DNA of 64,000 nt from a virus (Duplodnaviria; Heunggongvirae; Uroviricota; Caudoviricetes), in the IMG/VR virus record IMGVR_UViG_3300020109_000007, positions 47,463 through 111,462 of that record; one strand, given 5' to 3'. Shown in pieces: positions 10,141 through 45,206 of the stretch. The position numbers were made by a program, and so were the translations under genes. Positions within the stretch are counted from its first letter, which is position 1. Each line of letters opens with the position of its first letter. Below the pieces are notes generated by a model. The model saw only the letters and a list, made by a program, of their open reading frames with translations. It ran no database searches and had not been told where the DNA came from.

Positions 10141-10586
10141 TAAAAGGGCACCTCATCATTTAAAATATATACTACAGGTTGAAAGTTGATGGCTTCTTCT
10201 TCTAAGATAGCGGAGACTATCTTCCACTCTCCGCCAGCTAAACCACATCCGATTAGCGGAAAAGCTACCTCACCTCGCACATTCTTGTTAATTAAGCTAA
10301 AACCCTTACGAAGGGCTCGATAGTCGACGTGAACTCGATCAGTTCCGTAGAATTCTTGCCCAACTAAATTAAGAATAATATGACTCTCGCAGTCTGCTCC
10401 AATAACAGAGCCTAGCGTGAGTCGATTTTCCTCATATGCTTCTCTGTAGATCTCAAATGCTCTAGGATACTTCAGTCGAATCGCCTTAGCAACTTCAGAG
10501 CCCATTACTCCTTGAGCATTCACACAATGGCAGATGTACTTAGCTTCTGTATTCAATAGATCACCGTATCGGTAGTCAATTTGCAT
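10140..10586 (-). CDS. Macro domain (ADP-ribose binding/processing) protein
   Basis: HCVNAQGVMGSEVAKAI and PLIGCGLAGG motifs. The likely start is at the internal Met near 10586. Confidence 0.55.
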   Translation of the reverse strand: MQIDYRYGDLLNTEAKYICHCVNAQGVMGSEVAKAIRLKYPRAFEIYREAYEENRLTLGSVIGADCESHIILNLVGQEFYGTDRVHVDYRALRKGFSLINKNVRGEVAFPLIGCGLAGGEWKIVSAILEEEAINFQPVVYILNDEVPF

Positions 10587-11019
10587 TGAGTAAATCCTGC
10601 CTATACAGAGCTTGTAATTTGAGATGCTCATTCGTAGGTGTTAGATTTTGATTCCTACAAATATCTAGTTCTTCTTGGTACTTATCTTTCCACAGAGACG
10701 TACCGTAAACCGCTTCTAATATCATCCATTGACTAGTTACAGAGGCTAACTGAACGTCGAAACCCAAGAACTTTCTTGGCTCATTATCAGTCATTGCTAT
10801 TAGCTGCAATCTACCAGGGGTCTGAAAAGCATCATAATCTATCTTAGTCCCATAGACCCAAGCATAGAAGCTATTAGCTGTTTCTACATAATTTTCAACA
10901 GGAAGATTTATATGTGCTACAAAATCATAAAAGCTCTTCTTAGAGCCAATAAAGTCATAGTCCGTGTCTCTACTAATTAATCCGTGTGCTTGCAGAGACT
11001 TTGATCCGTATAAAATCAT
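10576..11019 (-). CDS. Hypothetical protein
   Basis: 147-aa ORF. Confidence 0.3.
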   Translation of the reverse strand: MILYGSKSLQAHGLISRDTDYDFIGSKKSFYDFVAHINLPVENYVETANSFYAWVYGTKIDYDAFQTPGRLQLIAMTDNEPRKFLGFDVQLASVTSQWMILEAVYGTSLWKDKYQEELDICRNQNLTPTNEHLKLQALYRQDLLNAN

Positions 11020-11702
11020 AAATTAGTAACGTCCACGAAATAAGTCGGAAAGAAGGTATAGCTTGGACCAATCCATCCAGTATTACCGCCGGACGTTCCT
11101 GTGCCCGAAGAAGCATATACTGGAAAATTATCGTGAATGTAAGAACTACCGAGAACTCTCAATCCTGCAAATCTAATTTCTTCACGATAGAAGTAGTCTC
11201 CTCGTGTATCTACTTCTACGTCTAGAGTTCTATCGTATCCCGCCATACTCCAAAAAGCATATTGCTTACCTGGGGGCAACTGATCCGCACTAATAGGTCT
11301 TACCACTTGCATTATCGGAACATTACTATCAAATATACAGGTTCCTGTTTCCGAAAATACTTGCAGTCCTGCGTTATTATTGCTAAAGCTGGGGTTGTCA
11401 AATATGTAATATTCGACAGAACCCGTAAACGCAAGAGTCGAGTCTCTCAGTAGCAAAACTGTCGCCGTATATGTGTTGCCATTTTTAGTAAAGTTACCGA
11501 TACCCGCAAGACTATAAGATCCGTTCACCTTAATAGCAGGAATAGGATTAGTTCCTGTAAAACTGAATGTACCTTCTGATATACGAGCGTAATTTCCCTG
11601 TACTAAGGGAGCATAGCCTTTTTGAGTTAGCGATAGTACGGGAGTTACTCCGTCTATTTGAAAGACGTTATCGTCATTTAACACCTGCATACCTACTGGC
11701 AT
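11016..11702 (-). CDS. Hypothetical protein
   Basis: 228-aa ORF, Gly/Ser/Thr-rich. Confidence 0.3.
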   Translation of the reverse strand: MPVGMQVLNDDNVFQIDGVTPVLSLTQKGYAPLVQGNYARISEGTFSFTGTNPIPAIKVNGSYSLAGIGNFTKNGNTYTATVLLLRDSTLAFTGSVEYYIFDNPSFSNNNAGLQVFSETGTCIFDSNVPIMQVVRPISADQLPPGKQYAFWSMAGYDRTLDVEVDTRGDYFYREEIRFAGLRVLGSSYIHDNFPVYASSGTGTSGGNTGWIGPSYTFFPTYFVDVTNL

Positions 11703-12004
11703 TATTGTACTCCGTACACTACTCTATACTCCCCTGAAAAGGGAGGAGGCTGAGCCTCGCCACCAAATGTGGCCGTGCCAATAAATAGTCGGGTATCTCC
11801 GTCTGTGAACTGAGCGTCTACTCGCCTGTTGGAAAAGTTATAAACTATAACCCAAGGTTTTTGAGTCCCTGATAAGGGAGGCAGATTTATATAGGTATTC
11901 TGTTCATATGTATAAGTAACATCTGAAAGAACTCTAGATGTATAAGTAGAAGTATCTAATATTAGAACTCCCGACTCGTTCCAAACCTGAAGTCCTTGTG
12001 GCAC
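11702..12004 (-). CDS. Hypothetical protein
   Basis: 100-aa ORF whose stop and start overlap its neighbours. Confidence 0.3.
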   Translation of the reverse strand: MPQGLQVWNESGVLILDTSTYTSRVLSDVTYTYEQNTYINLPPLSGTQKPWVIVYNFSNRRVDAQFTDGDTRLFIGTATFGGEAQPPPFSGEYRVVYGVQ

Positions 12005-12199
12005 TTAACTCCTAGAGACTTTATCCCTTAGAAGAGATATACCGTACCAAATAGCCCAGAACGGCCAGATGATAGCTACAAAAACGTGATTGAATTGAAA
12101 TGGGGAAACTCCATGACGCGGAGCCTCACGATAAATCTGAATTAGAAACACCGTTAGCCCAATCAGATAGGTCGCGAGAATAATCCAAAAAGCAGTCAT
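12005..12199 (-). CDS. Small membrane protein
   Basis: The start is reassigned to the internal Met MTAFWII, which has an AGGAG RBS. The longer ORF would overlap the tRNA at 12216-12289. Confidence 0.4.
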   Translation of the reverse strand: MTAFWIILATYLIGLTVFLIQIYREAPRHGVSPFQFNHVFVAIIWPFWAIWYGISLLRDKVSRS

Positions 12200-12215
12200 G
12201 TAAGCTCCTATAAAG

Positions 12216-12289
12216 TGGAGCCCCCGAAGGGAGTCGAACCCTAGCACTTAAGATTAGAAGTCTCAATGCCGAAATCCGTCGGCGGGGGC
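12216..12289 (-). tRNA. tRNA (anticodon loop CTTCTAA suggests UCU, Arg)
   Basis: Acceptor GCCCCCG/CGGGGGC plus an encoded CCA. T-arm AGGGTTCGACTCCCT. Confidence 0.6.
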
Positions 12290-12295
12290 AATAAA

Positions 12296-12742
12296 TTACT
12301 TATTCAACTCGCGCTCAATTTCAGTAAAGAAAATCATATAACGACCCATTCTCTTTACATCCTTCTCAGTAATACCCTTAAGGCGAGTAATATCACTGTT
12401 ATGCTTTAAATCGCTACGTTTTACTTTCATGGCGTCACGATTAGCTAGAACCTTTGACTTGTAAGTATTATAGCTCTCACCATTTTGTTTAGTGAGTGCC
12501 ATGATACCTTCAATGATGCGAGAGGTAGCCCCTAGTTCGATGAGGTCTTCTACAGTAGCGGAAGTATCCTCAAAGAGATCGTGCCCTACAGCTATGCATT
12601 GAACCTCCTCATCCTCTAGGCGAACTCCGTGGAGCACTTCTAGTACGTGAAGAATATAAGGTTCCCCAGCTTTATCAAACTGCCCAGCATGAGCATTAGT
12701 AGCAAATACAATAAATTTTCCTAGAAGCTCGCCTTTATTCAT
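12296..12742 (-). CDS. HD-domain (p)ppGpp hydrolase, SpoT/RelA-hydrolase-like (small alarmone hydrolase)
   Basis: NAHAGQFDKAGEPYILHVLEV followed by AVGHDLFED matches the RelA/SpoT HD hydrolase signature. Confidence 0.65.
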   Translation of the reverse strand: MNKGELLGKFIVFATNAHAGQFDKAGEPYILHVLEVLHGVRLEDEEVQCIAVGHDLFEDTSATVEDLIELGATSRIIEGIMALTKQNGESYNTYKSKVLANRDAMKVKRSDLKHNSDITRLKGITEKDVKRMGRYMIFFTEIERELNK

Positions 12743-12759
12743 TATTACTTCCTTTCTAG

Positions 12760-12800
12760 GACTAGAGTAGCAAAACTAAGATAGCGAGTCAAGAAATAAA
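12760..12800 (-). promoter_or_regulatory. sigma70-like promoter (TTGACT-N17-TACTCT) for 12296..12742
   Basis: Reverse-complement reading gives TTGACTcgctatcttagttttgcTACTCT. Confidence 0.4.
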
Positions 12801-13000
12801 TCTCAACTCGCTATCTAAACGAACGGGTCCCCGCTGCTCCCGATTACGCCGTGCTCGATGGGGTTTCACAGGGTCGACCCTGTCTCTTCTCTATACTACG
12901 GCAACGCATGTCGCTCGGGCTACACTTTAAGGTCGCATCACGCGTCCAGCAGATTGGCCGGTGAGTAGGTAGGTTACACCCGATCCCCTACTTCTTATAA

Positions 13001-13081
13001 TGGAGCCCTCGACAAGACTCGAACTTGCATGTGATCCAATTAACCTTTCAACTGGTTCGTAGCCAGAGGGTTTACGAGGGC
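13001..13081 (-). ncRNA. Non-canonical tRNA-like RNA (acceptor, T-arm and CCA; no standard D/anticodon arrangement)
   Basis: GCCCTCG...CGAGGGC-T-CCA acceptor. T-arm GCAAGTTCGAGTCTTGT. Internal hairpins CTGGCTACGAACCAG and AACC...GGTT. Confidence 0.4.
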
Positions 13082-13086
13082 AGTTA

Positions 13087-13536
13087 TTAGTGAGCAAAAG
13101 TCTTACAACGAACAGCGTGATCTGCTGCGTGAGTAGCAGCCCAGCCGTCTGGCTTAATAACAGGCTTGAAACCCATTCCAGTTACATAGCCCATAGCTTC
13201 CTTCAAAGCGATGTTAGACTTGTGCTTAGGGTCGCTGTTTAGATCGAGGTGAACTTCAAGTGGCCTATCACCGAGAACTTCTACGATCTCAGAAGCTGCG
13301 GCGAGTGCGTATCCTGCCTCATTCATGAGGCGTTCACGCAAGTTGCCGAAGTCTCGCATAGTCTGCGTATCGTAGAAGATCTTACAGCCATGACGTCCGT
13401 CCTTATGCAGGACGATTACGGTAGAGTATCGTGCATACCAGACGCCCAACTTCTTAAGGCGAATGGAGTCACAGCCGATATAGACTTTCGACTCCTTAGA
13501 AGAGTCTGCGACAGCTTGTTTTGCTTCTTCCCACAT
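13087..13536 (-). CDS. Hypothetical protein (possibly RNase H-like fold)
   Basis: 149 aa with conserved acidic and His residues (VYIGCDS..., HLDLNSD, AATHAADHAVR). No firm family assignment. Confidence 0.3.
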   Translation of the reverse strand: MWEEAKQAVADSSKESKVYIGCDSIRLKKLGVWYARYSTVIVLHKDGRHGCKIFYDTQTMRDFGNLRERLMNEAGYALAAASEIVEVLGDRPLEVHLDLNSDPKHKSNIALKEAMGYVTGMGFKPVIKPDGWAATHAADHAVRCKTFAH

Positions 13537-14108
13537 TAGACTATCCTATTATATTTCTTGATATTATCTTCTGGAGATAAATATTGTAAATTATTTTCTA
13601 CATGTAACCCACATACTTCTACACCTTGAAGTGGTATAATATGATCTACATGAAAGCCTTTTGGACAATTAGCGTATATGCGAGCAATTTCTTTCAAATT
13701 TGCCCATTTGGGTATACTACCTAACCTTGCACTTTTGTATTTAGCAGTTCTAGCTGTTTGAGTAACATAGCTTCTGCTATAGTGACAAGTCTTACAATAA
13801 GCATTGTGACCATCTGAACGGTTTTTATTTAAAGCAAAAGAAGAAATCTGTAAAGTTTCTTTACAGGAAGAACAATTTTTTAATCCTGCTAATTTTAGTA
13901 GCCAAGTTGATAACTTTTCTTTTCCTACTTTATCGGGAAAATAACTTGCTAGTATACTTAGCCGCAGTATGTCCGTACTCTTCTCTTAAATTGTAAGAAC
14001 TTTTACTCAATATATCTAGTAATCTATTGTAGGAGTAGCCCTTGTTATCTAACAAATAAGGGATTTCTCTATTATAAGATATTATAATGCTATCTAATAG
14101 ATCTTTCA
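13537..14108 (-). pseudogene. HNH homing endonuclease pseudogene (frameshifted)
   Basis: Own translation: frame A reads MKDLLDSIIISYNREIPYLLDNKGYSYNRLLDILSKSSYNLREEYGHTAAKYTSKLFSR*. A second frame continues through RLSILASYFPDKVGKEKL...NCSSCKETLQ...PKWANLKEIARIYANCPKGFHVDHIIPLQGVEVCGLHVENNLQYL. That frame has no Met, which explains its absence from the ORF track. Confidence 0.6.
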
Positions 14109-14192
14109 TAGTTGGTTGCGGGAGTAGCGCTCGAATCTACCAGATTGCCAGGATATGAGCCTGGTGACTAACCATCTTGTCCTTCCCGACAT
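14104..14192 (-). tRNA. tRNA-like / degenerate tRNA (acceptor does not close)
   Basis: CCA, a T-arm with TTCGAGC loop and a D-arm-like segment, but 5'/3' acceptor complementarity is poor. Confidence 0.3.
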
Positions 14193-14331
14193 AATGAATT
14201 ATAGAAGCCTCTTATTAGGCTGAGGTCGAACAGAAGGAGCTGTAGGAGTATTAGCTACGTCCTTTGACTTCTGAAAGAAGCGCCCAAATAGAAATGCGAA
14301 GATTGTCTTAAACATAATAATCTCCTTAAAT

Positions 14332-14406
14332 TGGCATGGGTCCAGGGACTCGAACCCTGCTCGGCGGCTTTGGAGACCGCTGCCATCCCTGATCGGCCTG
14401 ACCCAT
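14332..14406 (-). tRNA. tRNA-Trp(CCA)
   Basis: Acceptor ATGGGTC/GACCCAT, T-arm CAGGGTTCGAGTCCCTG, anticodon arm GCGGT-CTCCAAA-GCCGC. Confidence 0.7.
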
Positions 14407-14561
14407 ATGATACTAGCAACGCATGTTTGTTGCGGACTTATTCGCATTATCCAATGAAGCTAGTTTTTCTCGAATCTTGTCATGTTGTTCCTTGGTTAGT
14501 GTATCGTTCATATCTAGAACGCCCTGCAACCATAGGGCAAAACTCTTGTAAGTATCCATAA

Positions 14562-14803
14562 TTAACACTCCACCATGGGTGATCTAGAGTAGGTTGTATT
14601 GCTTTCGATATTGAAAGCACTACCTTCGTGCGCTCTTGAAAGCGGTTCTTGCTGCTCATCCGGAAAGCTAGGGTCGATCTCGTGGATAAACACCATGTTG
14701 AGGTGTCGCTTAATTAGATCAGCTTCTCGATCTCCAATATAAAGATCATCTCCTGACAACTCGAAGAAGCCTTGCAGCCAATAACAGAAATCCCTAGAAG
14801 TCA
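14562..14803 (-). CDS. Hypothetical protein (start reassigned to avoid tRNA overlap)
   Basis: Internal Met MTSRDFCYWLQGFF.... Confidence 0.3.
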
Positions 14804-14818
14804 TACTAACCTTTCTAA

Positions 14819-14895
14819 TGGTACTAGCGGTGGGACTCGAACCCACAAACGCGAACTTTTGAGGAACGCAGGTTTGCCCTTTCCGTCACGCTAGC
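14819..14895 (-). tRNA. tRNA (anticodon loop CTCAAAA; anticodon stem has two T-T mismatches)
   Basis: Acceptor GCTAGCG/CGCTAGT, T-arm GTGGGTTCGAGTCCCAC. Confidence 0.5.
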
Positions 14896-14901
14896 ATGAA
14901 T

Positions 14902-14975
14902 TGGTTGTCCTACGAAGATTCGAACTTCGATACTACGGTTATCGGCCGATTGCTCTACCATTGAGCTATAGGACA
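14902..14975 (-). tRNA. tRNA (type undetermined)
   Basis: Acceptor TGTCCTA/TAGGACA, D-arm GCTCAATGGTAGAGC, T-arm CGAAGTTCGAATCTTCG. Perfect hairpin CGATA-ACCGTAG-TATCG in the anticodon region. Confidence 0.55.
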
Positions 14976-14982
14976 GTGAAAT

Positions 14983-15060
14983 TGGTGGACTCGGTGAGAA
15001 TCGAACTCACAACACGCGCCGTGCAAAGGCGCATCGCTATCCCTTAGTACATGCGAGCCC
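14983..15060 (-). tRNA. tRNA-Ala(TGC)
   Basis: Anticodon arm GCGCC-TTTGCAC-GGCGC and a G3-U70 pair in acceptor GGGCTCG/CGAGTCC. Confidence 0.65.
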
Positions 15061-15321
15061 GTTAAGTGGTGAAGACAGAGAGGTTCCAACTCTCCTGCGC
15101 TATGCTGCCAGCATTGCCTGGACACCAAGCCCTGCCCCCATTAACTATATTTCGTAGGCACATGGCCCTTATAATTGTTGATGTAGAACTCTTGCTCTTC
15201 TTCGTGCAAACAGCTCCACACGTATTCTAGAAACTTGATCTGCTCGTCCATAAGATGGAACTTAGCAATCAGACGTGCTTTCGCCTCTTTGTAATGCACC
15301 TTAGTCTCCTCGTTGAGGAGC

Positions 15322-15981
15322 CTAATAAGGAAACTTATTTCCTTTTTTTAGGTTTTCCTCTGCTGTAAGATATTGTAAGTTAGTTTCGACATGTAGTCCA
15401 CAAACATTATCTCCTTGCAAAGGGATCACGTGATCTACGTGATAGCCTTCAGGACAGTTTAAATAAATGTCTCTAATTGCAGCCACGTCGGCCCAACTAG
15501 GACAAGCTCTAAGTTTTGCCGCTCTTCTTTTAGCGTCAATAGCTCTTTTTACCTCAGGATTATCTTTGGCCCATCGCATAGAAGCTAGACTAGACTTCTC
15601 CGCATTGGATGCGTAATAAGCTCTAGATTTATTAACTAAGCAAATTGAGCAAGAACTACTTAATTCATCAGAGTTAGATTTATCTAGCCCAAACTCTGAT
15701 CGAGGTTTTATGCAATTACATTTAGCACAATACTTATTTTCTGTGAGTCTAAGCAACTGTTGTTTAGCAGTAAGTTTTCCTAAAGCTTTTTCAGGTGTAA
15801 GCATCTTCATATATTTATAAAACGTATCTCGCTTTATAAGAAGTAGACTCATGGCTTCTAAGCTAGAATTTGAGCCTAATACTGCTAATATAAAAGACCG
15901 ATAAGTTATTGCTTTACGGTCTTTCCATTTAGGAATTAAAATAGCATCAGGTTTATCCGTTATCTGGGCTACTAAGTCCAT
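15322..15981 (-). CDS. HNH homing endonuclease
   Basis: C-terminal YHVDHVIPLQGDNVCGLHVETNLQYLTAEEN..N. Confidence 0.75.
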   Translation of the reverse strand: MDLVAQITDKPDAILIPKWKDRKAITYRSFILAVLGSNSSLEAMSLLLIKRDTFYKYMKMLTPEKALGKLTAKQQLLRLTENKYCAKCNCIKPRSEFGLDKSNSDELSSSCSICLVNKSRAYYASNAEKSSLASMRWAKDNPEVKRAIDAKRRAAKLRACPSWADVAAIRDIYLNCPEGYHVDHVIPLQGDNVCGLHVETNLQYLTAEENLKKGNKFPY

Positions 15982-16399
15982 TCTTTATATGCTCTCGTGC
16001 AACCTTTTGCATCTTTGCTGTAGTCTCAGAGTTATTCCAATATCTATTAACACCAGAAGTATGTGGAATTAATAGAACATTATCTAAAATCTCTCCAAAA
16101 GACATTTTGCGATATTTGGCCGGCATGGCCTTGATCGCCGATTTGCCTAAAACTATAAAAGGCTTAGAACCGGCCTTCGCTAGAAAGGAAGCTACTCTAG
16201 ACCGGGATTCAAGACTAGCGGAACTGGCAGAGCCCCTCTCAACCGCATTTAGTCTGGTTGTGACCGCTAAGTAATCCTCTTTATTATTAAAGTTCAGCAG
16301 CCGCATTAAACGAGCAGCTGCTCCAGTATCAGTATGAGGGTACAGCGGTCTATCTGGATCAGTATTTGGACCTGGGCGTTCGCCCAGAATGAAGATCAT
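15953..16399 (-). CDS. Hypothetical protein, weak UDG-superfamily-like motifs
   Basis: ILGERPGP...G.......G..L..LL and a late IPHTSG. Confidence 0.3.
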   Translation of the reverse strand: MIFILGERPGPNTDPDRPLYPHTDTGAAARLMRLLNFNNKEDYLAVTTRLNAVERGSASSASLESRSRVASFLAKAGSKPFIVLGKSAIKAMPAKYRKMSFGEILDNVLLIPHTSGVNRYWNNSETTAKMQKVAREHIKNGLSSPDNG

Positions 16400-16731
16400 T
16401 CTTTACTCGATTGAATCGTAATTAGCTTGGAAGGCTTAAAAGCACGCCAGGCTTGCTCTTCTAGGTCAAATACTGGAATATAGTCATTATAATGACGATC
16501 CTCAGCAGGCTTCGTAGCCGATACGTGAGGTAGATAGTCTTCCTTCAAAGTGCAAATCATGACTCGCTCAGAGCCATCGCGCTTCTCGAAGGTAATTTCG
16601 CAGATTTCGTTCTTGAGTCGATCAATCAACTGTTCGTTATTCATTCTGAAATCCTTAAATGGAGCGCCCGGAGGTATTCGAAACCTCTTTCCATGGCTTT
16701 GCAGGCCAGGCAGCAACCTATGCGCGGACAC
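16396..16731 (-). CDS. Hypothetical protein
   Basis: 111-aa ORF. Confidence 0.3.
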   Translation of the reverse strand: MSAHRLLPGLQSHGKRFRIPPGAPFKDFRMNNEQLIDRLKNEICEITFEKRDGSERVMICTLKEDYLPHVSATKPAEDRHYNDYIPVFDLEEQAWRAFKPSKLITIQSSKE

Positions 16732-16738
16732 ATTAAAC

Positions 16739-16816
16739 TGGAGCCTCCACGAGGAATCGAACCCCGACTACCGCAGTACAAAAGCGGTGTGCTAAAACCG
16801 TTATCACTATGAAGGC
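16739..16816 (-). tRNA. tRNA-Thr(TGT), provisional
   Basis: Acceptor GCCTTCA/TGGAGGC, T-arm CGGGGTTCGATTCCTCG, anticodon region ACCGC-TTTTGTACT-GCGGT. Confidence 0.55.
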
Positions 16817-17077
16817 ATTAAATTGGCGAGCGCGACGGGTAACGATCCCGCTTTGTAGGATTGACAATCCTATGTGTTTACCATAATCACCACGCGCCCA
16901 TTAAATCTTAAATGCGGGGAAAATCTCATTGTGACCGAGAGCCTTTCGGGCTTCATCATAAATCTGACGCAGCTCATTCTCAAAGCGCTTCGTAACGGCG
17001 GCCTTCTGAGCCTCTTCCTCACGAGCCTTGGCAAGATCGGCTACAATCTGTTCAACGGTTCGCATTTGCTTCCTTTC

Positions 17078-17125
17078 GTCTTGATGCGATCATTATATTC
17101 AAAACTAGGACCAAAGTCAAGAACT
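17078..17125 (-). promoter_or_regulatory. Conserved sigma70-type promoter (TTGACT-N17-TATAAT ... ATCAAGAC)
   Basis: Reverse-complement reading gives agTTGACTttggtcctagttttgaaTATAATgatcgcATCAAGACG. Confidence 0.5.
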
Positions 17126-17752
17126 AAATTAAGAGTGGCTTTTCGAAAAGCTCTGTATTACCTCCTGACTTAAGATAATCTTTGACAGTTACTCTCTTTA
17201 CAGAGGCTAGTAACTTCTGCTCCAAAGTTAGGGCCTCTGCTCCCGTAGCAAAACTCCAAATCTTAAGTATCTCTAATAATTTATCAGAATCTTTAGCGAA
17301 GCGTTCTTTCACGGTTCTATTAGTAACCCCCACTTTATAATAGTTACCTATTTTACGTAATAGGTTAGAGCTGGTTTATCTAATTTAAACCTTGAAGTAT
17401 TACAAATGGGACAACCGTTTCCATGTAAAATAGAGTCAGGAGAAACTAGATATTTATGGTCACAATTTAAATTATGATGCAAAATCTTAGTAGTCGTATT
17501 AACGTACTTTTCTAATACGTTAAACCTGTCTTTAACTTGCTCAACGTACAAGTCGTGGGATTTAAAATTACCGGCACATAAAGGACACCCACTTCCATTT
17601 AGAAGATGAGCAGGCCTGACTCTCCATTTAAAACCACACTTATGTCTATGTAAAACAGGAGTTTTATTTGTCTGATAATTTTCCAAACGAGTATAATCGC
17701 TAGCTTTAGCAGCTAACTCAATATCATATTCTTCGTTTGTCTTTCTTTTCAT
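17124..17752 (-). pseudogene. Split GIY-YIG/T5orf172-like endonuclease gene (two ORFs, 17348..17752 and 17124..17333)
   Basis: The upstream ORF carries the Zn-ribbons (GFKWRVRPAHLLNGSGCPLC). The downstream ORF carries the family C-terminus (ITVKDYLKSGGNTELFE). Both parts are contiguous in intact paralogues such as 40082..40702. Confidence 0.45.
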
Positions 17753-17937
17753 ATGTCATTTAGTCTGCAAATATACTATATCCGTGTACTCTCCGAATTG
17801 TCCAGCATCCAGCCTTATCGCTAAACATGATACCCAGACCTTCCACAGCATTCGCCTCTTGAATGTTACGACGAAGTTTCTCGCCTGTAGCAGACTCAAG
17901 ATCACAGATACGATAGTACATTTATATTCCTATATTG

Positions 17938-18013
17938 TGGTGCGCCCCCAGGGAATCGAACCCTGATCCTCCGCTCTTCAGGCGGGTGCATGAACCACCA
18001 CTGCCAGAGACGC
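17938..18013 (-). tRNA. tRNA-Phe(GAA)
   Basis: T-arm CAGGGTTCGATTCCCTG and anticodon loop CTGAAGA. Confidence 0.6.
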
Positions 18014-18014
18014 A

Positions 18015-18221
18015 TTAGTTAATCTTACAAGTCCTACCTGATTGCTTATCACTAGGAATTACATACTCTATATGCCCACCGCGGCTAAGACAATTCGTCT
18101 TGTACTCGCTGTCAAGCTTACTATCATTAGAAACACAGCTAGTAATTAAGAAAATTACTACTACACCAGCCATAAGAACCATCGCCCATACTAGGCTGAA
18201 CATACGATCACTGGAGTTCAT
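18015..18221 (-). CDS. Small membrane protein
   Basis: TM segment FSLVWAMVLMAGVVVIFLI. Confidence 0.3.
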   Translation of the reverse strand: MNSSDRMFSLVWAMVLMAGVVVIFLITSCVSNDSKLDSEYKTNCLSRGGHIEYVIPSDKQSGRTCKIN

Positions 18222-18436
18222 TAACGCTGCCCCTTCACGGCCTGGTAAGATTGAGAGAGCTCAAACATAGAGCCTACGATATAATTAGACTTAGAAACTG
18301 GAATTACCGGAGGTCTAAAAGCAGGACTACCACAAGATAGACAAGTTCGGTATCCTAGTTCACGACGACGTGGATCGTAGTCGTCTCCACACTTAATACA
18401 AAAAGGCACAACATTCTCCGTCTTTGTTGTGTCCAT
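18221..18436 (-). CDS. Zn-ribbon protein
   Basis: CIKCGDDYDP...CLSCGS. Confidence 0.3.
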   Translation of the reverse strand: MDTTKTENVVPFCIKCGDDYDPRRRELGYRTCLSCGSPAFRPPVIPVSKSNYIVGSMFELSQSYQAVKGQR

Positions 18437-18479
18437 TATAGTACAATAAGCTTATAAAGTCAATAAGTATTTTAATTAA

Positions 18480-18554
18480 TGGTGCTCCTGAGAGGGATCG
18501 AACCTCTTCTGACCCCATACCAAAGGGTCGTGCTGCCATTATCACTACAGAAGC
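18480..18554 (-). tRNA. tRNA-Thr(GGT)
   Basis: Acceptor GCTTCTG/CAGGAGC, anticodon arm ACCCT-TTGGTAT-GGGGT. Confidence 0.6.
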
Positions 18555-18555
18555 A

Positions 18556-18627
18556 TGGAGCCCCTCCGTGGACTCGAACCGCGTCAGTCGGGGTAGAAAC
18601 CCAACGTCTCATCCAGTGAGGAGGGGC
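18556..18627 (-). tRNA. tRNA-Arg(TCT)
   Basis: Perfect acceptor GCCCCTC/GAGGGGC, anticodon arm TTGGG-TTTCTAC-CCCGA. Confidence 0.6.
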
Positions 18628-18795
18628 GTTTTATATAGCTGTTTTTAATATCTAAAGAAGAAAAGAATCCATTCTTTAAGCGAAGATCATTTACAGATAC
18701 TTTCCCACTTTTTAAGTCTTCCTCATCTTTAAGACGAGTTTTTTCTTTTTCTAGAGCTCTTTCTCTAGGATCATAATATTCCATGTTAAATTCCT

Positions 18796-26886: not shown

Positions 26887-27068
26887 GTGTAATCTCCGTT
26901 GTTACGGAGTTCGAAATAAAAATCTAATTCTGCTTCTACGTCGGCTAGTTCCTCATAAACTAGCTGCCAAGCTGTAGAGTCTTCGTCATACTCACGAAGT
27001 TCTTCTGTAAGTCCATGGACATGACGTTCTGCCACGTCAATGCTATACATGAGGTCATCGTAAGTCAT
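26877..27068 (-). CDS. Hypothetical acidic protein
   Basis: 63-aa ORF. Confidence 0.3.
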   Translation of the reverse strand: MTYDDLMYSIDVAERHVHGLTEELREYDEDSTAWQLVYEELADVEAELDFYFELRNNGDYTDS

Positions 27069-27080
27069 ATACTGCTCTCC

Positions 27081-27128
27081 GTCTTGATGAACTCAGTATA
27101 TAAATATTAAGCTTCAAAGTCAATATAA
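27081..27128 (-). promoter_or_regulatory. Conserved sigma70-type promoter
   Basis: Reverse-complement reading gives TTGACTttgaagcttaatatttaTATACTgagttcATCAAGACGG. Confidence 0.5.
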
Positions 27129-27313
27129 TTTTTAAATGCCACTTCAAAAGCCTCTTCAAAGCTTACTTCTTCCCAAGACATTCCCATCAAAACTTCCCAG
27201 TCTCTAGGTCCATTACGTCTAAAATGCGTCCAAGGATAGTAGTCGGTGTTCTCGATAGTCATGTAGAAACATGTTACTTCGTCTAGTTCAGTGATCTGCA
27301 TAACTATTTCCAA
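27107..27313 (-). CDS. Hypothetical protein
   Basis: 68-aa ORF. Confidence 0.3.
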   Translation of the reverse strand: MEIVMQITELDEVTCFYMTIENTDYYPWTHFRRNGPRDWEVLMGMSWEEVSFEEAFEVAFKNYIDFEA

Positions 27314-27314
27314 A

Positions 27315-27391
27315 ATGGAGGACCGCCCGGGTCTCGAACCCGGATCGCATGGATTAAGAGTCCAGCTATTAGCCTATTATTAAGAACGGTC
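27315..27391 (-). tRNA. tRNA-Lys(CTT)
   Basis: Loop CTCTTAA on a TGGA/TCCA stem, T-arm CCGGGTTCGAGACCCGG. Confidence 0.55.
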
Positions 27392-27586
27392 CAAAAGAAA
27401 AGCCACGGAAGTCCTGTGACAACCGTGGCGCATATGGTAGCAGCTATGAGTTACGATCTCATCAAAGGAGCCTTATGAGAGCCCCCTGGACACCAGTCCA
27501 GCTGCCATGCGCGCACTTCTACCCTTGTGTGGGTTCCCTTTATTCAGAAGAAGTGACGGTAAATAAAACGACATGATTTCCTTAAA

Positions 27587-27681
27587 TGGAGGAAGGCTGG
27601 CAGTGTCGATCTCCAACCGGGCTACTAACCCGATCCACCCGCTTTCAAGGCGGAGCCCGAGGCCGCTCGGGATAACCTTCC
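27587..27681 (-). tRNA. tRNA-Ser(TGA), type II
   Basis: Anticodon arm TCCGC-CTTGAAA-GCGGG, variable hairpin CGGGTTAGTAGCCCG, ATCGACA T-loop as in Ser(GGA). Confidence 0.55.
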
Positions 27682-27687
27682 ATTATA

Positions 27688-27764
27688 TGGATCCCCGCGT
27701 CAGACTCGAACTGACACACATGTGGGTCAAAGCCACACCGCCTTACCAGGTAGCGCAACGGGGA
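27688..27764 (-). tRNA. tRNA-Gln(TTG)
   Basis: Anticodon arm TGTGG-CTTTGAC-CCACA, T-arm GTCAGTTCGAGTCTGAC. Confidence 0.65.
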
Positions 27765-27769
27765 ATAAA

Positions 27770-28372
27770 TTAATATTTATTGTTTTTAGAATTATTTTCA
27801 TAAGGGGTTAAATATTGTAAATTAGTCTCTACATGAAGACCGCATACAGTATTTCCTCTTATGGGTATTATATGATCTACTTGATACCCTGGAGGACAAT
27901 CATCATATATTTCTCTAATCTTCTTCAGATTAGCATATGATGGAGTAGCTTGTTTAAGCGCTTTATCGTATTCAGCCCTATAGAGAGCATATCTGCCTTT
28001 ATTTTTAGAATAATACTTAGGCATATATTCTTTATAATATAAAGAATAGCACGACCTACAATAATCTTTAGAAAAGACTTCTAAGGGCAGAACTTGAGCA
28101 CATTTAGAGCAATACTTATGCTCAAATTTATTGAACAAATAAGTACAAAGCTTTTCATTTCCTTTATCGGGAAATAATTCCCTTGTAAATCTAAGCACTG
28201 CAGAAGCAGATGCTTCCATATCTCGGCCTAAATTGTAAGCCGGCTTAGCTAATGTAGTTTTGAGTTCTTCTAAGCTTAATTTAGAGCCTTTGCTCCTTTT
28301 AAACTTAATAATATCTGCTATATTTGGAACAGCAGATAGCAAAAATTTATCTATAGCTTCTTTTCTAGTCAT
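27770..28372 (-). CDS. HNH homing endonuclease
   Basis: YQVDHIIPIRGNTVCGLHVETNLQYLTPYEN. Confidence 0.75.
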   Translation of the reverse strand: MTRKEAIDKFLLSAVPNIADIIKFKRSKGSKLSLEELKTTLAKPAYNLGRDMEASASAVLRFTRELFPDKGNEKLCTYLFNKFEHKYCSKCAQVLPLEVFSKDYCRSCYSLYYKEYMPKYYSKNKGRYALYRAEYDKALKQATPSYANLKKIREIYDDCPPGYQVDHIIPIRGNTVCGLHVETNLQYLTPYENNSKNNKY

Positions 28373-28446
28373 TGGTACCCAGTAGCAGAATTGAACTGCT
28401 TCATTCGCTATGTAAAAGCGACAGGCTAACCATTACATCAACCGGG

Positions 28447-28495
28447 CTCTTGATGTAGTCATTATATTCAAAATGACCCTAGAAGTCAAGAACTT
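28447..28495 (-). promoter_or_regulatory. Conserved sigma70-type promoter
   Basis: ctcttgatg...cattata...agtcaagaact. Confidence 0.5.
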
Positions 28496-34989: not shown

Positions 34990-35286
34990 ATCCGTAATAA
35001 GTCGTTTTTCTAGGCTTTATCTTAGAAAACATAGGTATATAGTCCCTAAGACTACAAAAGCCAGCGTAAAATAACCCCATAAAGGGCACCTTCCATATCT
35101 CATTCATAAATCCTTGCCGAGTCTTGGATGACGAGGTCACTCGGCGAACCTCGGGAAGTCAAGCCGCTTGGGCTACTTCCATGTCGTTATCGTTGACACT
35201 TACGTTTTTGATCTCTAAGCGGATCACACTATAGTCTCTTACCTAACTTTCATAACTAATCGAACCCAGTTCTACCCCTCATAGTT

Positions 35287-35325
35287 TTGGTGGAGTAGGA
35301 GGGAGTCGAACCCTCGTGTTAGCTT
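35287..35325 (-). ncRNA. tRNA 3'-half remnant (CCA, acceptor 3' strand, T-arm only)
   Basis: tgg-t-ggagtag-gaggg-agtcgaa-ccctc. No complementary 5' acceptor strand exists. It overlaps the 3' end of HNH gene 35330..35719. Confidence 0.4.
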
Positions 35326-35329
35326 ACTA

Positions 35330-35719
35330 TTATAGGTCGTCCTCAACTATTCTTAAATGAGGGTAGTGTACTTCCATATGACAATTATGACATAGTAAAT
35401 CACACTTGGCTATTTCGACCCTCAAGGACTCTCTGGACCTAGTTACACCTTGCGATATTTCAAAGTCTTTTTCTTCAGAGTTTTTATGGTGAAAAGTCAG
35501 AGCAGCTAAGTTATTTTTATATCCGCAAATTTCACACGCTAATAACCTACCAGACTCCTGCAAAATGTCTTTTATAGTACTAGTCTTAGCAGCTTTCTTT
35601 ACTGCATGGTAGCAATATCTACAATGTGCTTTATACTTTTTAGTACCTTTAGGGGTGTATCCATTGGAGTAAAACTCTTCTAACGGTCTAGGTACTTTAC
35701 AAGTCGCACATACTTTCAT
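35330..35719 (-). CDS. HNH endonuclease (zinc-binding type)
   Basis: CRYCYH...CEICGY...HHKN....CDLLCHNCH. Confidence 0.55.
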   Translation of the reverse strand: MKVCATCKVPRPLEEFYSNGYTPKGTKKYKAHCRYCYHAVKKAAKTSTIKDILQESGRLLACEICGYKNNLAALTFHHKNSEEKDFEISQGVTRSRESLRVEIAKCDLLCHNCHMEVHYPHLRIVEDDL

Positions 35720-36556: not shown

Positions 36557-36798
36557 AAAGTCGAATCCAATCCTCTAGAGTGTAATCTTCGTAGTCACTC
36601 GGGTGAGCGGCCACATCTTTCCAAGCCCATTTGTCAAAAGACCGTACGCTATTAATCATATAGTCTCTAAACTGTTGACAGGTCATTCTTTCTTCGTTCA
36701 TGATGCATATTACGCTTTTTGAGCGTCAAAGTCAAGAACTATTTAAGAACTCCCTAGCAGTGTCGGCTCAAACAGTGTTAAAAATTTCTCTTGACTAG

Positions 36799-36987
36799 AT
36801 GCTATGGTTCGTGTATATTATCAAGATGCCGAGAAAGGTTTGGACAACGGAAGAAAGGCATATACTAAAACGGCATTATGCTCATTTAGAAATGTCTGAG
36901 CTATTAGTATTACTACCTGATCGAACACCTTCTAGCGTCTACTCTCAGGTAGCTTATTTAAAAAGACGCGGTTGGAGATTTTATTAA
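36799..36987 (+). CDS. Small SANT/Myb-like DNA-binding protein
   Basis: VWTTEERHILKRHY...LLPDRTPSSVYSQ matches the N-terminal module of endonuclease ORFs 37973..38806, 40082..40702 and 54278..55099. Confidence 0.3.
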   Translation: MLWFVYIIKMPRKVWTTEERHILKRHYAHLEMSELLVLLPDRTPSSVYSQVAYLKRRGWRFY

Positions 36988-37191
36988 TGAGTAACGTAGT
37001 GCCTTTGTTTAAGGCCACGACTAAAGAAGATAAGAGTGCGACTCCCGTAGATATTAGGGAGCTTATTTCTAATATCCTTGATTGGACGGAGAAGCAAGGA
37101 GTAGAAGTAAAAGACAACGATCTAGAGTTTATGATAAAGTGTCGCGATTTAGTCGCTCACATTCAATCTCTAGCCTTAAAGAGGGTTGCTT

Positions 37192-37744
37192 GATGAGCAG
37201 AGCATCAGAAATTGCGGCAGAACTGCTAGAAAGCCGACCCGCCTTAAAGGCGAGTCTAACAGGCTCTAGAGCTGAACAGGTATACGCTTTTCATACTCTC
37301 TACGACTGTCCTATTCATAAAGGACGAGTCACTAGACAGATAGAGCATATGTCTGATGATAGAATTGCACTTCGATTAGGTCTAATTGTAGAGGAGCTAA
37401 AGGAGCTTCTCGAAGATGGATTTGGTATCAAGACTGAAATGCGATTCTACAACAACAAGAATCTAATCGGGTGGTCTGATACAAGCAAAATGATGCAGCT
37501 CTCTACTAAGAGAGACATTGTAGGGGCGAGCGATGCTCTTGCAGATTTATCCTACGTCATTGACGGATTTGCATTAGAAATGGGCGTAAATCTGGACGAA
37601 GTAATCAACGAGGTTCATGCTAGCAACATGACGAAGCCCGACGAGAACGGGCAGCCTATCTACAGGGCAGACGGTAAGGTTCTAAAGGGGCCTAGCTATG
37701 TAGAACCAAATATTGAAGACTGTATCTTTAAGAAAGACAATTAA
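37192..37744 (+). CDS. MazG-like nucleoside triphosphate pyrophosphohydrolase
   Basis: RLGLIVEELKELLED....E..D..D..YV....A...G..L..VINEVHASNMTK. The start is taken at MSRASEIAAELL. Confidence 0.5.
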
Positions 37745-37935
37745 TGTACGTTGAAGTAAGAAACAATAATGTTGATCGAGCCATTAGACTTCTGAAGAAG
37801 AAGATGGCAGATGAAGGAATCTTTCAAGAGTTGAGAGAGCGCCAGCATTATGAAAAGCCATCTGATCGCAAGAGAAGACTGAAGAGAGCCGCAATTGTAA
37901 GACACGCTAAGGCTCAGCGAGAGAGGCAGGAATAA
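37744..37935 (+). CDS. rpsU: Ribosomal protein bS21 homologue
   Basis: MYVEVRNNNVDRAIRLLKKK....G...ELRERQHYEKPSDRKRRLKRAAIVRHAK aligns along the whole length with bacterial S21 (VKVREN..DVALRRFKR...YEKPT.ERKR....AV.RHAK). An intrinsic terminator follows. Confidence 0.75.
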   Translation: MYVEVRNNNVDRAIRLLKKKMADEGIFQELRERQHYEKPSDRKRRLKRAAIVRHAKAQRERQE

Positions 37936-37939: not shown

Positions 37940-37978
37940 AAAGAGCCAAGCTTTCTAGCTTGGCTCTTATTTTTATTT
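37940..37978 (+). terminator. Rho-independent terminator
   Basis: agagccaagctttctagcttggctctt followed by attttt. Confidence 0.6.
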
Positions 37979-38806
37979 ATCCATGTTAAGAACATCTTTT
38001 TCAAATACTTCAGTATTGCCACTTGATATAAAATCACAATAGGATCTATTTTCGATATACTTTTCTAGTATTATCTTTTCTTCATTTTTAGCTTCTCTTC
38101 CTGTGTCAAAATACTTCTCTAATAAAACTTTGACTAAAAACCTACGATCATGGCTGAATCTTTTCAACACAGTTCTACCTGTTATACCCACTTTATAATA
38201 AGTAGATATGCCGTCTGATAATTTTACATAGTATAAAATTGTAGGTTTATCTAAGTTTAAAGTATAGTCGGCACATTCAGGGCAACCTGTATTAGAGGTT
38301 AATATTTGATGAGGTTTTACCTTCCATGTATGACCTTTAGGGCACTCATGTAATATAGGAGTCCTGGAGTTTATATAAGTTTCAATAGGGAAGGCTTCAC
38401 TTTGTAACTCAAATAACATACTTTCATATGTTTTATGACTTAATTCCAACTTAGGAGCTTTTAAATTTAAAAAACCCGCTTTAGCTGTTATAGCTTTATA
38501 GGTTCTACCATGTAACAATTTTATACACTCTTTGGGGCCTAAACTAGAGTAATTAGCTATCAGTAAAGCGATTTCTTTCTCAGACCAACTTTGAGAATTA
38601 GGGTTGATCATTTTTAACCCTAATTTACTAGCTTTGACTGCTACAGCTTTATTACTCCTGTTTAATACCTTAGCGCAGTATTCCACACCCTTGAGCGGGT
38701 AGTTTGTGATGAAAAACTCTAAATCTTCTGTGGACCATAACTTAGACATAAAGTGTATTATAACAGAAAGTTTCACTGTTGTCAAGAGTTTTCGATAGGA
38801 AACCAA
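37973..38806 (-). CDS. GIY-YIG-like (T5orf172-type) putative homing endonuclease with SANT-like N-domain and Zn-ribbon
   Basis: HECPKGHTWKVKPHQILTSNTGCPEC, ILYYVKL...YYKVGITGR and SSGNTEVFE. Confidence 0.5.
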   Translation of the reverse strand: MVSYRKLLTTVKLSVIIHFMSKLWSTEDLEFFITNYPLKGVEYCAKVLNRSNKAVAVKASKLGLKMINPNSQSWSEKEIALLIANYSSLGPKECIKLLHGRTYKAITAKAGFLNLKAPKLELSHKTYESMLFELQSEAFPIETYINSRTPILHECPKGHTWKVKPHQILTSNTGCPECADYTLNLDKPTILYYVKLSDGISTYYKVGITGRTVLKRFSHDRRFLVKVLLEKYFDTGREAKNEEKIILEKYIENRSYCDFISSGNTEVFEKDVLNMDK

Positions 38807-38814
38807 AATTAATA

Positions 38815-39147
38815 ATGACTGACTTACCTCCCCAACAAGTTCAATGTATAGCTGAAGTAATATATGCTGAGGCCAGAGGTGAATCTATAATTGGCCAAAG
38901 AGCTGTCGGACACGTTATTTTGAATAGAAGTAGACGTAATGGCAGAACCCCTTGTCAAGTAATAGCTAGACCTAATCAATTTCATAGAGTCAGAGTTAAC
39001 TATGCTTCTGAAGCTTGGAGAGTTGCTCAAAGGTTAGCTAGAAACTTAGGCGAAGATATAACACTAGGAGCCTTGTACTTTAACCCCGGATCAGTCCGAA
39101 GGTACACGTACACAGTTACAATTGGAAACCATAGGTTCTATAAGTAA
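38815..39147 (+). CDS. SleB/CwlJ-like cell-wall hydrolase
   Basis: IAEVIYAEARGES..GQ.AV.HVILNR hydrolase_2-type motif. The start is taken at MTDLPP. Confidence 0.6.
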   Translation: MTDLPPQQVQCIAEVIYAEARGESIIGQRAVGHVILNRSRRNGRTPCQVIARPNQFHRVRVNYASEAWRVAQRLARNLGEDITLGALYFNPGSVRRYTYTVTIGNHRFYK

Positions 39148-44347: not shown

Positions 44348-44800
44348 TTAGCTTGCCGAAACAGTCTTGTCAAAGCGTCGTTCACTCTTAGTCTCCAACG
44401 GAGGAATAGTGCTAATAGTAACGGCGTAAACTGCAAATAGAAGTAGCATATGGCCTACAAGAAAGAAAATATTCGTTACAGGATCGACAATTGTTGCCAA
44501 AATCTGCAGCCAAGCCAAGAAGAAGAACACTAACCTAACTATAAGATCAAAAGTACTATCAGCAGGTATAAACATAGACTGAAAATAATGTGCTTGAGCT
44601 AGTGTAAACACGAACATACCTGCAGCCACTATCAACCAAATAGTACCCCCCGAGACAACAGCATCTGCAAAGCAGAAGAGCCACCCTAAAGATAAGGCTT
44701 CTCGGGCAAACTTATACTGATTCCAGTTTAGCGCCTGACACGCTCGAATAATAAGAGGATGAAACAGTGTTTTCCCTACCCAGGCGTCAAAGGATCTCAT
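44348..44800 (-). CDS. Multi-pass membrane protein
   Basis: Four hydrophobic segments. Confidence 0.35.
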   Translation of the reverse strand: MRSFDAWVGKTLFHPLIIRACQALNWNQYKFAREALSLGWLFCFADAVVSGGTIWLIVAAGMFVFTLAQAHYFQSMFIPADSTFDLIVRLVFFFLAWLQILATIVDPVTNIFFLVGHMLLLFAVYAVTISTIPPLETKSERRFDKTVSAS

Positions 44801-45206
44801 TTTTAAGTGTCTCCAAAGCTTTGAGTTCGCTACCCTGCAAGAACTCGTCGTCGATCGGACCTAGCCCAACAGCCGTAGTAGTAGTGCAATCAAAAACTGT
44901 ATATCCGCAGTCATCTACGATAGTAGCTCCCATATATGGGAGGTACTTCTCGTAAAGCCGCTCTAGGTCCTGCACCGTATCTACGACTAGCGTAATCTTA
45001 CGAGCGTCATTTCCTCTACGGTAATCGTGCATAAGCTGGCAATACGCCTCATCGCCCCACCAGTTTCTATCAGTATCCCAGCCGAAACGATCCTCGGCGT
45101 CCCACCAAGCATGAAGAAAAGCGTGTCCCGCCTGAGCAGCCAGCTTTCCCTCATACTTCATCTTTCGAAGAGTCTCGCGACAAAAGATAGCGTACATCTT
45201 AATCAT
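44787..45206 (-). CDS. Peptidyl-tRNA hydrolase PTH2-like
   Basis: GKLAAQAGHAFLHAW and C-terminal LVVDT...G.T..TAVGLGP. Confidence 0.5.
   Translation of the reverse strand: MIKMYAIFCRETLRKMKYEGKLAAQAGHAFLHAWWDAEDRFGWDTDRNWWGDEAYCQLMHDYRRGNDARKITLVVDTVQDLERLYEKYLPYMGATIVDDCGYTVFDCTTTTAVGLGPIDDEFLQGSELKALETLKNEIL

Follow-up and report, generated by a model that had tools for sequence, protein, structure and literature searches.

A bS21 homologue on the genome of a T5-like phage

The DNA analysed here, a stretch of 64,000 nucleotides (nt) hereafter called the window, covers positions 47,463 to 111,462 of the IMG/VR record IMGVR_UViG_3300020109_000007 (Caudoviricetes) and belongs to an uncultured metagenomic T5-like phage of about 111 kb. 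On its plus strand lies a small open reading frame (ORF) for which a sequence-only reading, made from the letters without database searches, had claimed an end-to-end alignment with the ribosomal protein bS21:

37744..37935 (+): bS21 homologue, 63 amino acids (aa); ATG start, TAA stop; start overlapping the stop of a MazG-like gene (TAATG)

The translation of this ORF, MYVEVRNNNVDRAIRLLKKKMADEGIFQELRERQHYEKPSDRKRRLKRAAIVRHAKAQRERQE, matched the Pfam profile Ribosomal_S21 (PF01165) with 69.7 bits (gathering score 27, E 1.6e-19) over profile positions 2-53 of 55, the NCBIfam profile TIGR00030 S21p with 61.7 bits (cut-off 28.95) over positions 2-57 of 58, and PHROG 21469, 'ribosomal protein S21', with 67 bits. 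Both curated S21 cut-offs, those of Pfam and TIGR00030, were therefore exceeded more than twofold and end to end, so that the proposed alignment is borne out and the profile search that could have spoken against it gave significant S21 matches throughout. By these sequence criteria the ORF is confirmed as a genuine full-length bS21 homologue on a phage genome. Like cellular bS21, the protein is small and basic, with an isoelectric point of 10.68 and 19 K+R residues versus 10 D+E. Its YEKPS...RKR core is unchanged in 31 of 31 homologues, with Y36, E37, K38, P39 and S40 invariant, and E37, K38 and P39 are also invariant with respect to the aligned cellular bS21 proteins. The C-terminal tail in this phage lineage is short and of mixed charge, whereas the tails of cellular bS21 are longer, and it would be the obvious place for any altered specificity of the lineage protein. 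An AlphaFold2 model was fairly confident (mean predicted local distance difference test score 83.8) and placed helices at residues 10-24, 26-34 and 41-62.

A search of 5.8 billion proteins retrieved 119 bS21 homologues at 40-100% identity, nearly all of 63-65 aa, several of which the JGI pipeline labels 'small subunit ribosomal protein S21'. The longest contigs carrying these homologues cluster at 80-116 kb and none exceeds 116 kb, a size that fits phage genomes and not chromosomes. An identical bS21 protein is encoded on a 111-kb JGI contig and on a 97-kb Logan contig, and syntenic viral contigs were found in IMG/VR, related contigs measuring 107-116 kb. With the T5-like genes and the tRNA array of the window described below, this places the gene on a bona fide phage genome and not on cellular DNA.

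The standing of the gene within the lineage was assessed on 38 IMG/VR loci drawn through a neighbouring 208-aa gene and not through S21 itself, 23 of which had enough sequence on the S21 side (related loci and contigs from IMG/VR and other assemblies are denoted here by L-numbers, L002 to L102). In 22 of these 23 loci bS21 was detected by tblastn, and in the remaining one (L102) the small ORF is immediately followed by a divergent copy; all evaluable relatives therefore keep bS21 at the same locus, with 42-86% protein identity. Codon comparison with seven relatives gave mostly saturated proportions of synonymous differences (pS 0.44-0.98), low proportions of nonsynonymous differences (pN 0.02-0.28) and, wherever it was computable, a ratio of nonsynonymous to synonymous substitution (dN/dS) of 0.03-0.16. 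Saturated synonymous sites, low dN/dS and presence in 23 of 23 loci together indicate that bS21 is old in the lineage and under strong purifying selection, not a recent passenger.

The plus-strand cassette and its signals

The bS21 gene closes a short plus-strand cassette whose order is Myb-like ORF, 68-aa ORF, MazG-like pyrophosphatase and bS21. The cassette and its immediate surroundings comprise, besides bS21, the following features:

36791..36819 (+): sigma-70-like promoter TTGACT-17-TATATT, by consensus match only; 6 nt separate the end of its -10 box from the ATG at 36826
36826..36987 (+): single-repeat Myb/SANT-like ORF, 53 aa, first cistron, predicted leaderless (profile matches)
36987..37193 (+): ORF of 68 aa without an assigned function, called as a gene on the source contig; its start codon overlaps the stop codon before it
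37193..37744 (+): MazG-like nucleoside-triphosphate pyrophosphohydrolase, 183 aa (Pfam PRA-PH 38.2 bits; phrog_671 113.6 bits)
37941..37968 (either strand): bidirectional intrinsic terminator hairpin between the convergent bS21 and endonuclease-like genes (stem and fold energy)
37973..38749 (-): free-standing homing-endonuclease-like gene, 258 aa (phrog_681 100.9 bits; DUF4379)
38779..39147 (+): SleB-like cell-wall hydrolase, Hydrolase_2 (Pfam 50.9 bits)

At each of the three internal junctions (36987, 37193 and 37744) the stop codon of one cistron shares one base with the start codon of the next. The motifs upstream of the second and third cistrons are GGAG and AGAGG, and before bS21 the window shows a weak purine run only; in relatives, GGAAGGA stands 8-13 nt upstream of the bS21 start. 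The idea that bS21 is a gene devoid of a Shine-Dalgarno motif was accordingly considered and found unsupported, given GGAAGGA before bS21 in the relatives and GGAG/AGAGG at the internal junctions of the window. A profile built from 13 homologues of the Myb-like ORF matches repeat 3 of c-Myb (E 2e-7 to 3e-10) and, with hhalign probabilities of 88-89%, the N-termini of the endonuclease-like genes of the window; the 68-aa ORF gave no Pfam match. The partners of bS21 in the operon are therefore a Myb-like protein and a nucleotide pyrophosphatase, none of them a translation gene.

The spacing of 6 nt between the promoter and the ATG of the Myb-like ORF is identical in 10 of the 14 lineage members examined. 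With this spacing transcription would start on the A of the ATG itself, and the cassette mRNA is on consensus grounds predicted to be leaderless. Since the promoter shares its -35/-10 type with many minus-strand promoters of the early region, expression by the unmodified host RNA polymerase, early or in the middle of infection, may be anticipated. At the other end of the cassette, the hairpin has a stem of 12 bp, 6 of them G-C, with a T-rich tail behind it, and its 61-nt fold of -26.5 kcal/mol (z = -5.7) was equalled by 0 of 200 shuffles. It is symmetrical and can be read as a terminator on either strand. The sequence-only reading had assigned bS21 a terminator of its own; a strong hairpin does stand at that point, but, being bidirectional, it serves the convergent endonuclease-like gene as well. 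That gene has in turn a perfect promoter ending 7 nt before its ATG.

In the relatives, the small ORF, a nucleotide pyrophosphatase, bS21 and the SleB-like hydrolase form a plus-strand island within the minus-strand early region. The Myb-like small ORF lies directly upstream of bS21 or near it, and the hydrolase gene follows bS21 directly in most of them. The slot before bS21 is more variable: it holds the MazG-like enzyme in the window and a dUTPase in L065-L071, and is empty in the most divergent relatives, so that one nucleotide-cleaning enzyme has apparently been exchanged for another by non-orthologous replacement. An endonuclease-like gene, inserted on the opposite strand, separates bS21 from the hydrolase in the window and in L068, and is absent from this position in L002, L023, L065-67 and L070-71. 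One of the cassettes, with 86% protein identity, comes from a human-gut metagenome (L066; ENA ERZ4559313, a Hadza gut assembly), the other relatives being mostly environmental.

The phage genome and its early region

Nearly all long ORFs of the window lie on the minus strand, and many of its ORFs are small. A 662-aa protein (56987..58975) shows 41-43% identity with A1, the pre-early DNA-transfer protein of T5-like phages, and a 458-aa DnaB-like helicase (607..1983) has counterparts of about 30% identity in T5-like Serratia and Vibrio phages. The Pfam sweep of 96 window ORFs revealed three T5orf172 domains, NAD-ligase domains, ThyX and an RNase H-like domain, among others. Judged by A1, the helicase, the T5orf172 and NAD-ligase domains, 29 tRNA genes and related contigs of 107-116 kb, the window qualifies as part of a deeply divergent T5-like phage. 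Megablast of positions 36000-40000 against 50,697 phage records gave zero nucleotide matches, and therefore no cultured close relative in that collection, which places the phage outside the described genera. In minus-strand reading order the window presents A1, small ORFs, PTH2, the S21 cassette, the transfer-messenger RNA (tmRNA), ThyX, the tRNA array and the helicase, an order that matches the pre-early to early layout of T5. The S21 cassette is accordingly an early-region feature, with the tRNA array on one side of it and pre-early A1 on the other.

Several other signals were noticed in this region. Near-perfect TTGACA-17-TATAAT promoters end 5-7 nt before the ATG at 38749, 40702, 34225, 32732 and 24346 (all minus strand) and at 36826 (plus strand). 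These six close-set promoters serve several endonuclease-like or paralogous genes and the Myb-like ORF, and a distance of 5-7 nt predicts leaderless mRNAs. The box ATCAAGAS occurs 20 times (5.9 expected), 17 of them on the minus strand:

4248, 17078, 21236, 24652, 26751, 27081, 28447, 41292, 55873 and 63132 (-): example ATCAAGAS sites (motif count)

Most copies sit 5-6 nt past the -10 hexamer of minus-strand early promoters, a placement by which many early transcripts would share a 5' (C)AUCAAGAS start. On the plus strand, an element of the form CGCTTGACA-N17-(GC)TAAAATCGGCGC is present in at least 8 copies between 55226 and 62491, in the region of higher GC content around A1, and some copies are followed by hairpins; it may represent a second class of promoter or a repeated pre-early signal.

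Translation-related genes elsewhere in the window

Besides bS21, the sequence-only reading had pointed to a large tRNA set and to a hydrolase of the PTH2 type at 44787..45206. Both are present, together with a tmRNA gene:

9784..28447 (-): tRNA array, 29 genes with all 20 amino-acid specificities (ARAGORN)
35159..35350 (-): permuted (two-piece) tmRNA with the tag VNDNDMEVAQAA (Rfam RF04321, 90.6 bits versus a gathering score of 47; ARAGORN)
44787..45206 (-): PTH2-family (archaeal/eukaryotic-type) peptidyl-tRNA hydrolase homologue, 139 aa (Pfam PF01981, 42.7 bits versus 23)

All 29 tRNA genes are on the minus strand. Two additional tRNA-like Rfam matches, weak or truncated (23304..23360, minus strand, 36.0 bits; 23035..23093, minus strand, 30.4 bits) and not called by ARAGORN, may be degenerate tRNA remnants. 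Suppressor tRNAs were predicted in two relatives, at 15306..15378 (minus strand) of L002 with the anticodon TTA, reading UAA, and at 16378..16452 (minus strand) of L005 with the anticodon CTA, reading UAG; none was called in the window. The array also encloses a 498-aa protein (21430..22926, minus strand) with DUF2828 and DUF7788, whose counterparts at 42-47% identity, in T4-like Aeromonas phages among others, bear the annotation 'RNA-binding protein'.

The tmRNA match spans the full RF04321 model (positions 1-213) and lies 2.4 kb from the bS21 gene. A tmRNA occupies the same place in L005, L070 and L071, the tags in relatives being ANDNDVAFALAA and ANDNNVLADERLAA. The 25 families listed, of the 34 Pfam families matched by the 96 window ORFs, include neither SmpB nor any further translation factor.

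The identity of the hydrolase is sustained by the Pfam PTH2 threshold and by its motifs. In an alignment with the archaeal Pth2 structure 2zv3, GK..AQ.GHA and D.G.T....T.TAV..GP are kept, and an insertion of about 14 residues is apparent. These kept motifs presumably carry the catalytic Lys, Asp and Thr proposed in studies of Sulfolobus Pth2. The protein falls below the NCBIfam equivalog cut-offs (NF003314, 42.5 versus 126; TIGR00283, 39.2 versus 82) and is, to judge from these scores, a divergent member of the family and not an archaeal Pth2 equivalog. Its gene is kept in L002, L023, L070 and L071 with 62-69% identity; a single-sequence search of IMG/VR for PTH2 relatives returned one locus only, and the co-occurrence of S21 and PTH2 is therefore based on four relatives.

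The translation-related set formed by bS21, the PTH2-like gene, the tmRNA and the 29 tRNAs is spread over about 35 kb and two strands; these genes share a theme and do not form an operon. The proposal that they serve a joint strategy of modifying host translation is accordingly reasonable as a theme, and it is strengthened by the tmRNA and by the conservation of S21, PTH2 and tmRNA, but bS21 is neither physically nor transcriptionally linked to PTH2.

Origin of the gene and likely host

The closest named cellular bS21 proteins are encoded by plasmid-borne rpsU genes of Rhizobium and other Alphaproteobacteria, with 57-61% identity over the full length, in a plasmid collection biased to taxa with plasmid-borne rpsU. 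In one alignment, identity to the window protein was 57% for the rpsU of Rhizobium pRL10, 52% for the bS21 of Pelagiphage HTVC008M (51.6% over full length), 46% for a Desulfobulbia bS21, 43% for that of a gammaproteobacterial metagenome-assembled genome (MAG) and 37% for E. coli bS21. Among the bS21 chains of solved ribosomes, proteobacterial ones matched with 33-38 bits versus 24 bits for Flavobacterium johnsoniae. A pattern-based scan of species-representative genomes, a method that is itself biased, gave no cellular S21 above 56% identity among the matches listed; several of these matches are short MAG contigs that may be phage themselves.

Shine-Dalgarno cores precede 54% of the crude gene starts of the window versus 13% of random sites, a 4-5 times enrichment. 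A Bacteroidota host, which would have linked the gene to the sequestration of the anti-Shine-Dalgarno sequence, was considered and rejected, Shine-Dalgarno motifs being enriched and the F. johnsoniae bS21 being a much weaker match than the proteobacterial proteins. One bS21 homologue is labelled as belonging to a Hymenobacter MAG, on a contig of just 3.9 kb. Comparison of the tmRNA with phages by blastn retrieved generic tRNA-like T-arm segments only and was uninformative on the host. We take the ANDN-type tags of these tmRNAs to resemble alphaproteobacterial tags. According to the literature quoted in PMC9004378, the bacteria that typically have two-piece tmRNAs are Alphaproteobacteria, one group of betaproteobacteria and Cyanobacteria. 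Therefore, the closest cellular bS21, the use of Shine-Dalgarno motifs and a two-piece tmRNA with ANDN-type tags point, with moderate confidence, to an alphaproteobacterial host. The human-gut homologue (L066), the biased plasmid collection and the pattern-based scan temper this tentative assignment.

Discussion

The protein bS21 binds the platform of the 30S subunit beside the 3' end of 16S rRNA, the site of the anti-Shine-Dalgarno sequence. Ribosomes devoid of it are unable to bind natural mRNAs (PMC6375957; PMC9723584), and viruses favour ribosomal proteins that exchange easily between ribosomes (Mizuno et al., PMC6375957). Homology, gene structure, conservation throughout the lineage and purifying selection lead us to favour, with somewhat more belief than doubt, the reading that the ORF is a functional phage bS21, a core gene of an uncultured T5-like lineage, which most likely enters the host 30S subunit and there sustains or redirects initiation. 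We infer its timing, its incorporation and any selectivity as follows. The cassette would be transcribed within the early region from its host-type sigma-70 promoter and ended by the hairpin terminator; the protein would then bind the platform of the host 30S subunit, replacing the exchangeable host bS21 or adding to it. Ribosomes would in this way be kept competent for initiation, possibly with a bias to phage mRNAs, while the phage, by analogy with T5, shuts down host gene expression. In doing so bS21 may act within a wider phage translation kit that includes tRNAs for the 20 amino acids, the two-piece tmRNA and the PTH2-type hydrolase. Precedent for the central step exists, as Pelagiphage bS21 made in E. 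coli was stably incorporated into 70S ribosomes (PMC6375957). A change in mRNA choice also has a parallel in Francisella, where alternative bS21 paralogues are reported to alter which mRNAs get translated.

Several points weigh against the reading of a phage bS21 that sustains or redirects initiation. None of its operon partners, namely a DNA-binding protein, a nucleotide pyrophosphatase and, among the relatives, a cell-wall hydrolase, is a gene of translation, and both PTH2, at a distance of 7 kb, and the tRNAs lie kilobases away on the other strand. Foldseek matched the structural model in the PDB to only four mitochondrial bS21m chains with non-significant E values (0.4-1.0), the model being an isolated one that lacks the rRNA contacts by which the bS21 fold is defined. 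What suggests early expression is the promoter type and the map position, and other bS21 phages express the gene late (PMC9723584). A viral bS21 has been put to a direct test just once, and the E. coli ribosomes that contained it retained about 5% of their normal in vitro activity (PMC6375957), so incorporation need not mean stimulation.

That last result is the natural starting point for a dominant-negative role, by which the phage protein would take the site of host bS21 and disable initiation on host mRNAs while phage messages escape through leaderless starts or particular leaders. The loss of some 95% of in vitro activity fits such a role (PMC6375957), as does the prediction that the S21 operon and several endonuclease-like genes begin with leaderless cistrons. 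We nevertheless hold it to be very unlikely, because most phage genes carry Shine-Dalgarno motifs (54% versus a background of 13%) and so need ribosomes competent for them, and because the published inactivity may, according to its authors, stem from a mismatch between phage and host (PMC6375957). A milder alternative is pure replenishment, in which the phage protein equals that of the host and simply tops up a loosely bound, exchangeable component once host transcription stops, leaving mRNA preference unchanged. The company of other translation spare parts (tRNAs for the 20 amino acids, tmRNA and PTH2) and the invariance of the rRNA-binding core motif agree with it, and so does the T5-like nature of the phage, as T5 degrades host DNA early in infection. 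Simple equivalence is, however, exceeded by the divergence of a protein only 57-61% identical to its closest named cellular counterparts and endowed with a short, lineage-specific C-terminal tail, and we therefore consider replenishment pure and simple unlikely, though it deserves to be kept in mind.

The pairing of bS21 with a Myb-like DNA-binding ORF and not with translation genes could also be taken as the mark of a role off the ribosome, as an RNA-binding or regulatory factor with, for instance, phage transcripts, the tmRNA or its own operon as targets, and one bS21 is reported from a non-ribosomal ribonucleoprotein (PMC12054373). Against it, the residues that the lineage conserves coincide with the S21 motif common to the whole family, and the full-length coverage of the profile leaves no new domain, so that we give this possibility very little credence. 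Phages do occasionally acquire ribosomal protein genes, and bS21 adjoins a mobile endonuclease-like gene, as might a neutral passenger recently captured from the host and devoid of any phage role. Such an origin is effectively excluded by the conservation data: 23 of 23 evaluable relatives keep the gene at the same locus at 42-86% protein identity, synonymous sites are saturated with dN/dS at or below 0.16, and among the matches listed no cellular sequence exceeds 61% identity. On the other side of the favoured reading, a bolder version of it, which we consider a long shot, builds on the distance of exactly 6 nt between -10 box and ATG, which recurs in 10 of 14 diverged relatives. In it bS21 would be more than a spare part, namely the effector of a conserved two-gene unit with the Myb-like ORF, expressed from a leaderless mRNA, that yields a specialised early 30S subunit preferring phage messages, many of them with the shared 5' AUCAAGAS box just past the early promoters.

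Phage bS21 is already a described kind of gene, with over 1,300 viral contigs on record. The sequence-only reading had called it known but uncommon. For cultured phages this holds, since 33 of 50,697 deposited phage records match bS21, but in metagenomes it is the commonest virus-encoded ribosomal protein, making up 88% of them in 1,310 genomes or contigs that are mostly aquatic and lytic (PMC6375957). The gene context of 900 published bS21 phages has also been surveyed. No T5-like phage is among the 33 matching deposited records, and a full-text literature search combining T5-like or Demerecviridae with S21 returned nothing relevant. What is modestly new here is thus the T5-like phage group, the early-region cassette on the opposite strand, the invariant pairing with a Myb-like ORF and the predicted leaderless start.

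The best studied relative, the bS21 of HTVC008M (Mizuno et al. 2019, PMC6375957), belongs to the same family, with 51.6% identity over full length and a common N-terminal V-x-V-[KR]-N-N-N-V, and both it and the window gene are carried by lytic-type phages, stand alongside tRNAs and are under purifying selection. Related pelagimyophages, and Melnitz too, also carry two-piece tmRNAs, a kind of gene thus already described in marine phages (PMC9004378). HTVC008M is, however, a T4-like myophage (Kyanoviridae) in which bS21 neighbours cobalt chelatase and heat-shock protein genes, in contrast to the Myb-like ORF and pyrophosphatase of the T5-like genome described here, and the incorporation of its bS21 into ribosomes was demonstrated in E. 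coli, that of the window protein being a prediction. In freshwater Bacteroidetes phages (Chen et al. 2022, PMC9723584) bS21 likewise occupies a fixed genomic context on the strand opposite to its neighbours, and substitution into host ribosomes is also the mechanism proposed. These genes belong to the late structural module and are co-expressed with capsid genes, unlike the early-region gene of the window, and they are Bacteroidetes-like, whereas the window protein is proteobacterial-like (36-38 versus 24 bits for F. johnsoniae) and the phage genes use Shine-Dalgarno motifs.

Among cellular proteins, the accessory bS21 copies (plasmid-borne rpsU of Rhizobium and other Alphaproteobacteria, and the Francisella paralogues) include the closest named sequences (57-61%) and provide a reported precedent for extra copies that alter ribosome composition (PMC9578407; PMC13374519). 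They are cellular and have longer C-terminal tails, the Rhizobium pRL10 copy measuring 78 aa versus the 63 aa of the phage protein. We know of no link between these accessory paralogues and phages. The PTH2-like protein has its own counterpart in jumbo phages, where an archaeal/eukaryotic-type Pth2 domain of the same Pfam family has been proposed to free peptidyl-tRNA in ribosome rescue (Iyer et al. 2021, PMC7824862). The genome described here, of about 111 kb, is in contrast not a jumbo one, and its protein has about 14 residues inserted in comparison with archaeal Pth2 and scores below the NCBIfam equivalog cut-offs.

Among viruses, no ribosomal protein gene is as common as that for bS21. 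Our analysis confirms this expected kind of gene in a phage group for which the searched literature does not report it, and the lineage offers a clean comparative case, in which bS21 is a core gene with saturated synonymous sites, located in the early T5-like region and not in a late structural module. Its companions are a two-piece tmRNA, a Pth2-type hydrolase and tRNAs for all 20 amino acids. Given a host, which is probably an alphaproteobacterium, the choice between ribosome upkeep after host shut-off and a reprogrammed selection of mRNAs would become directly testable.

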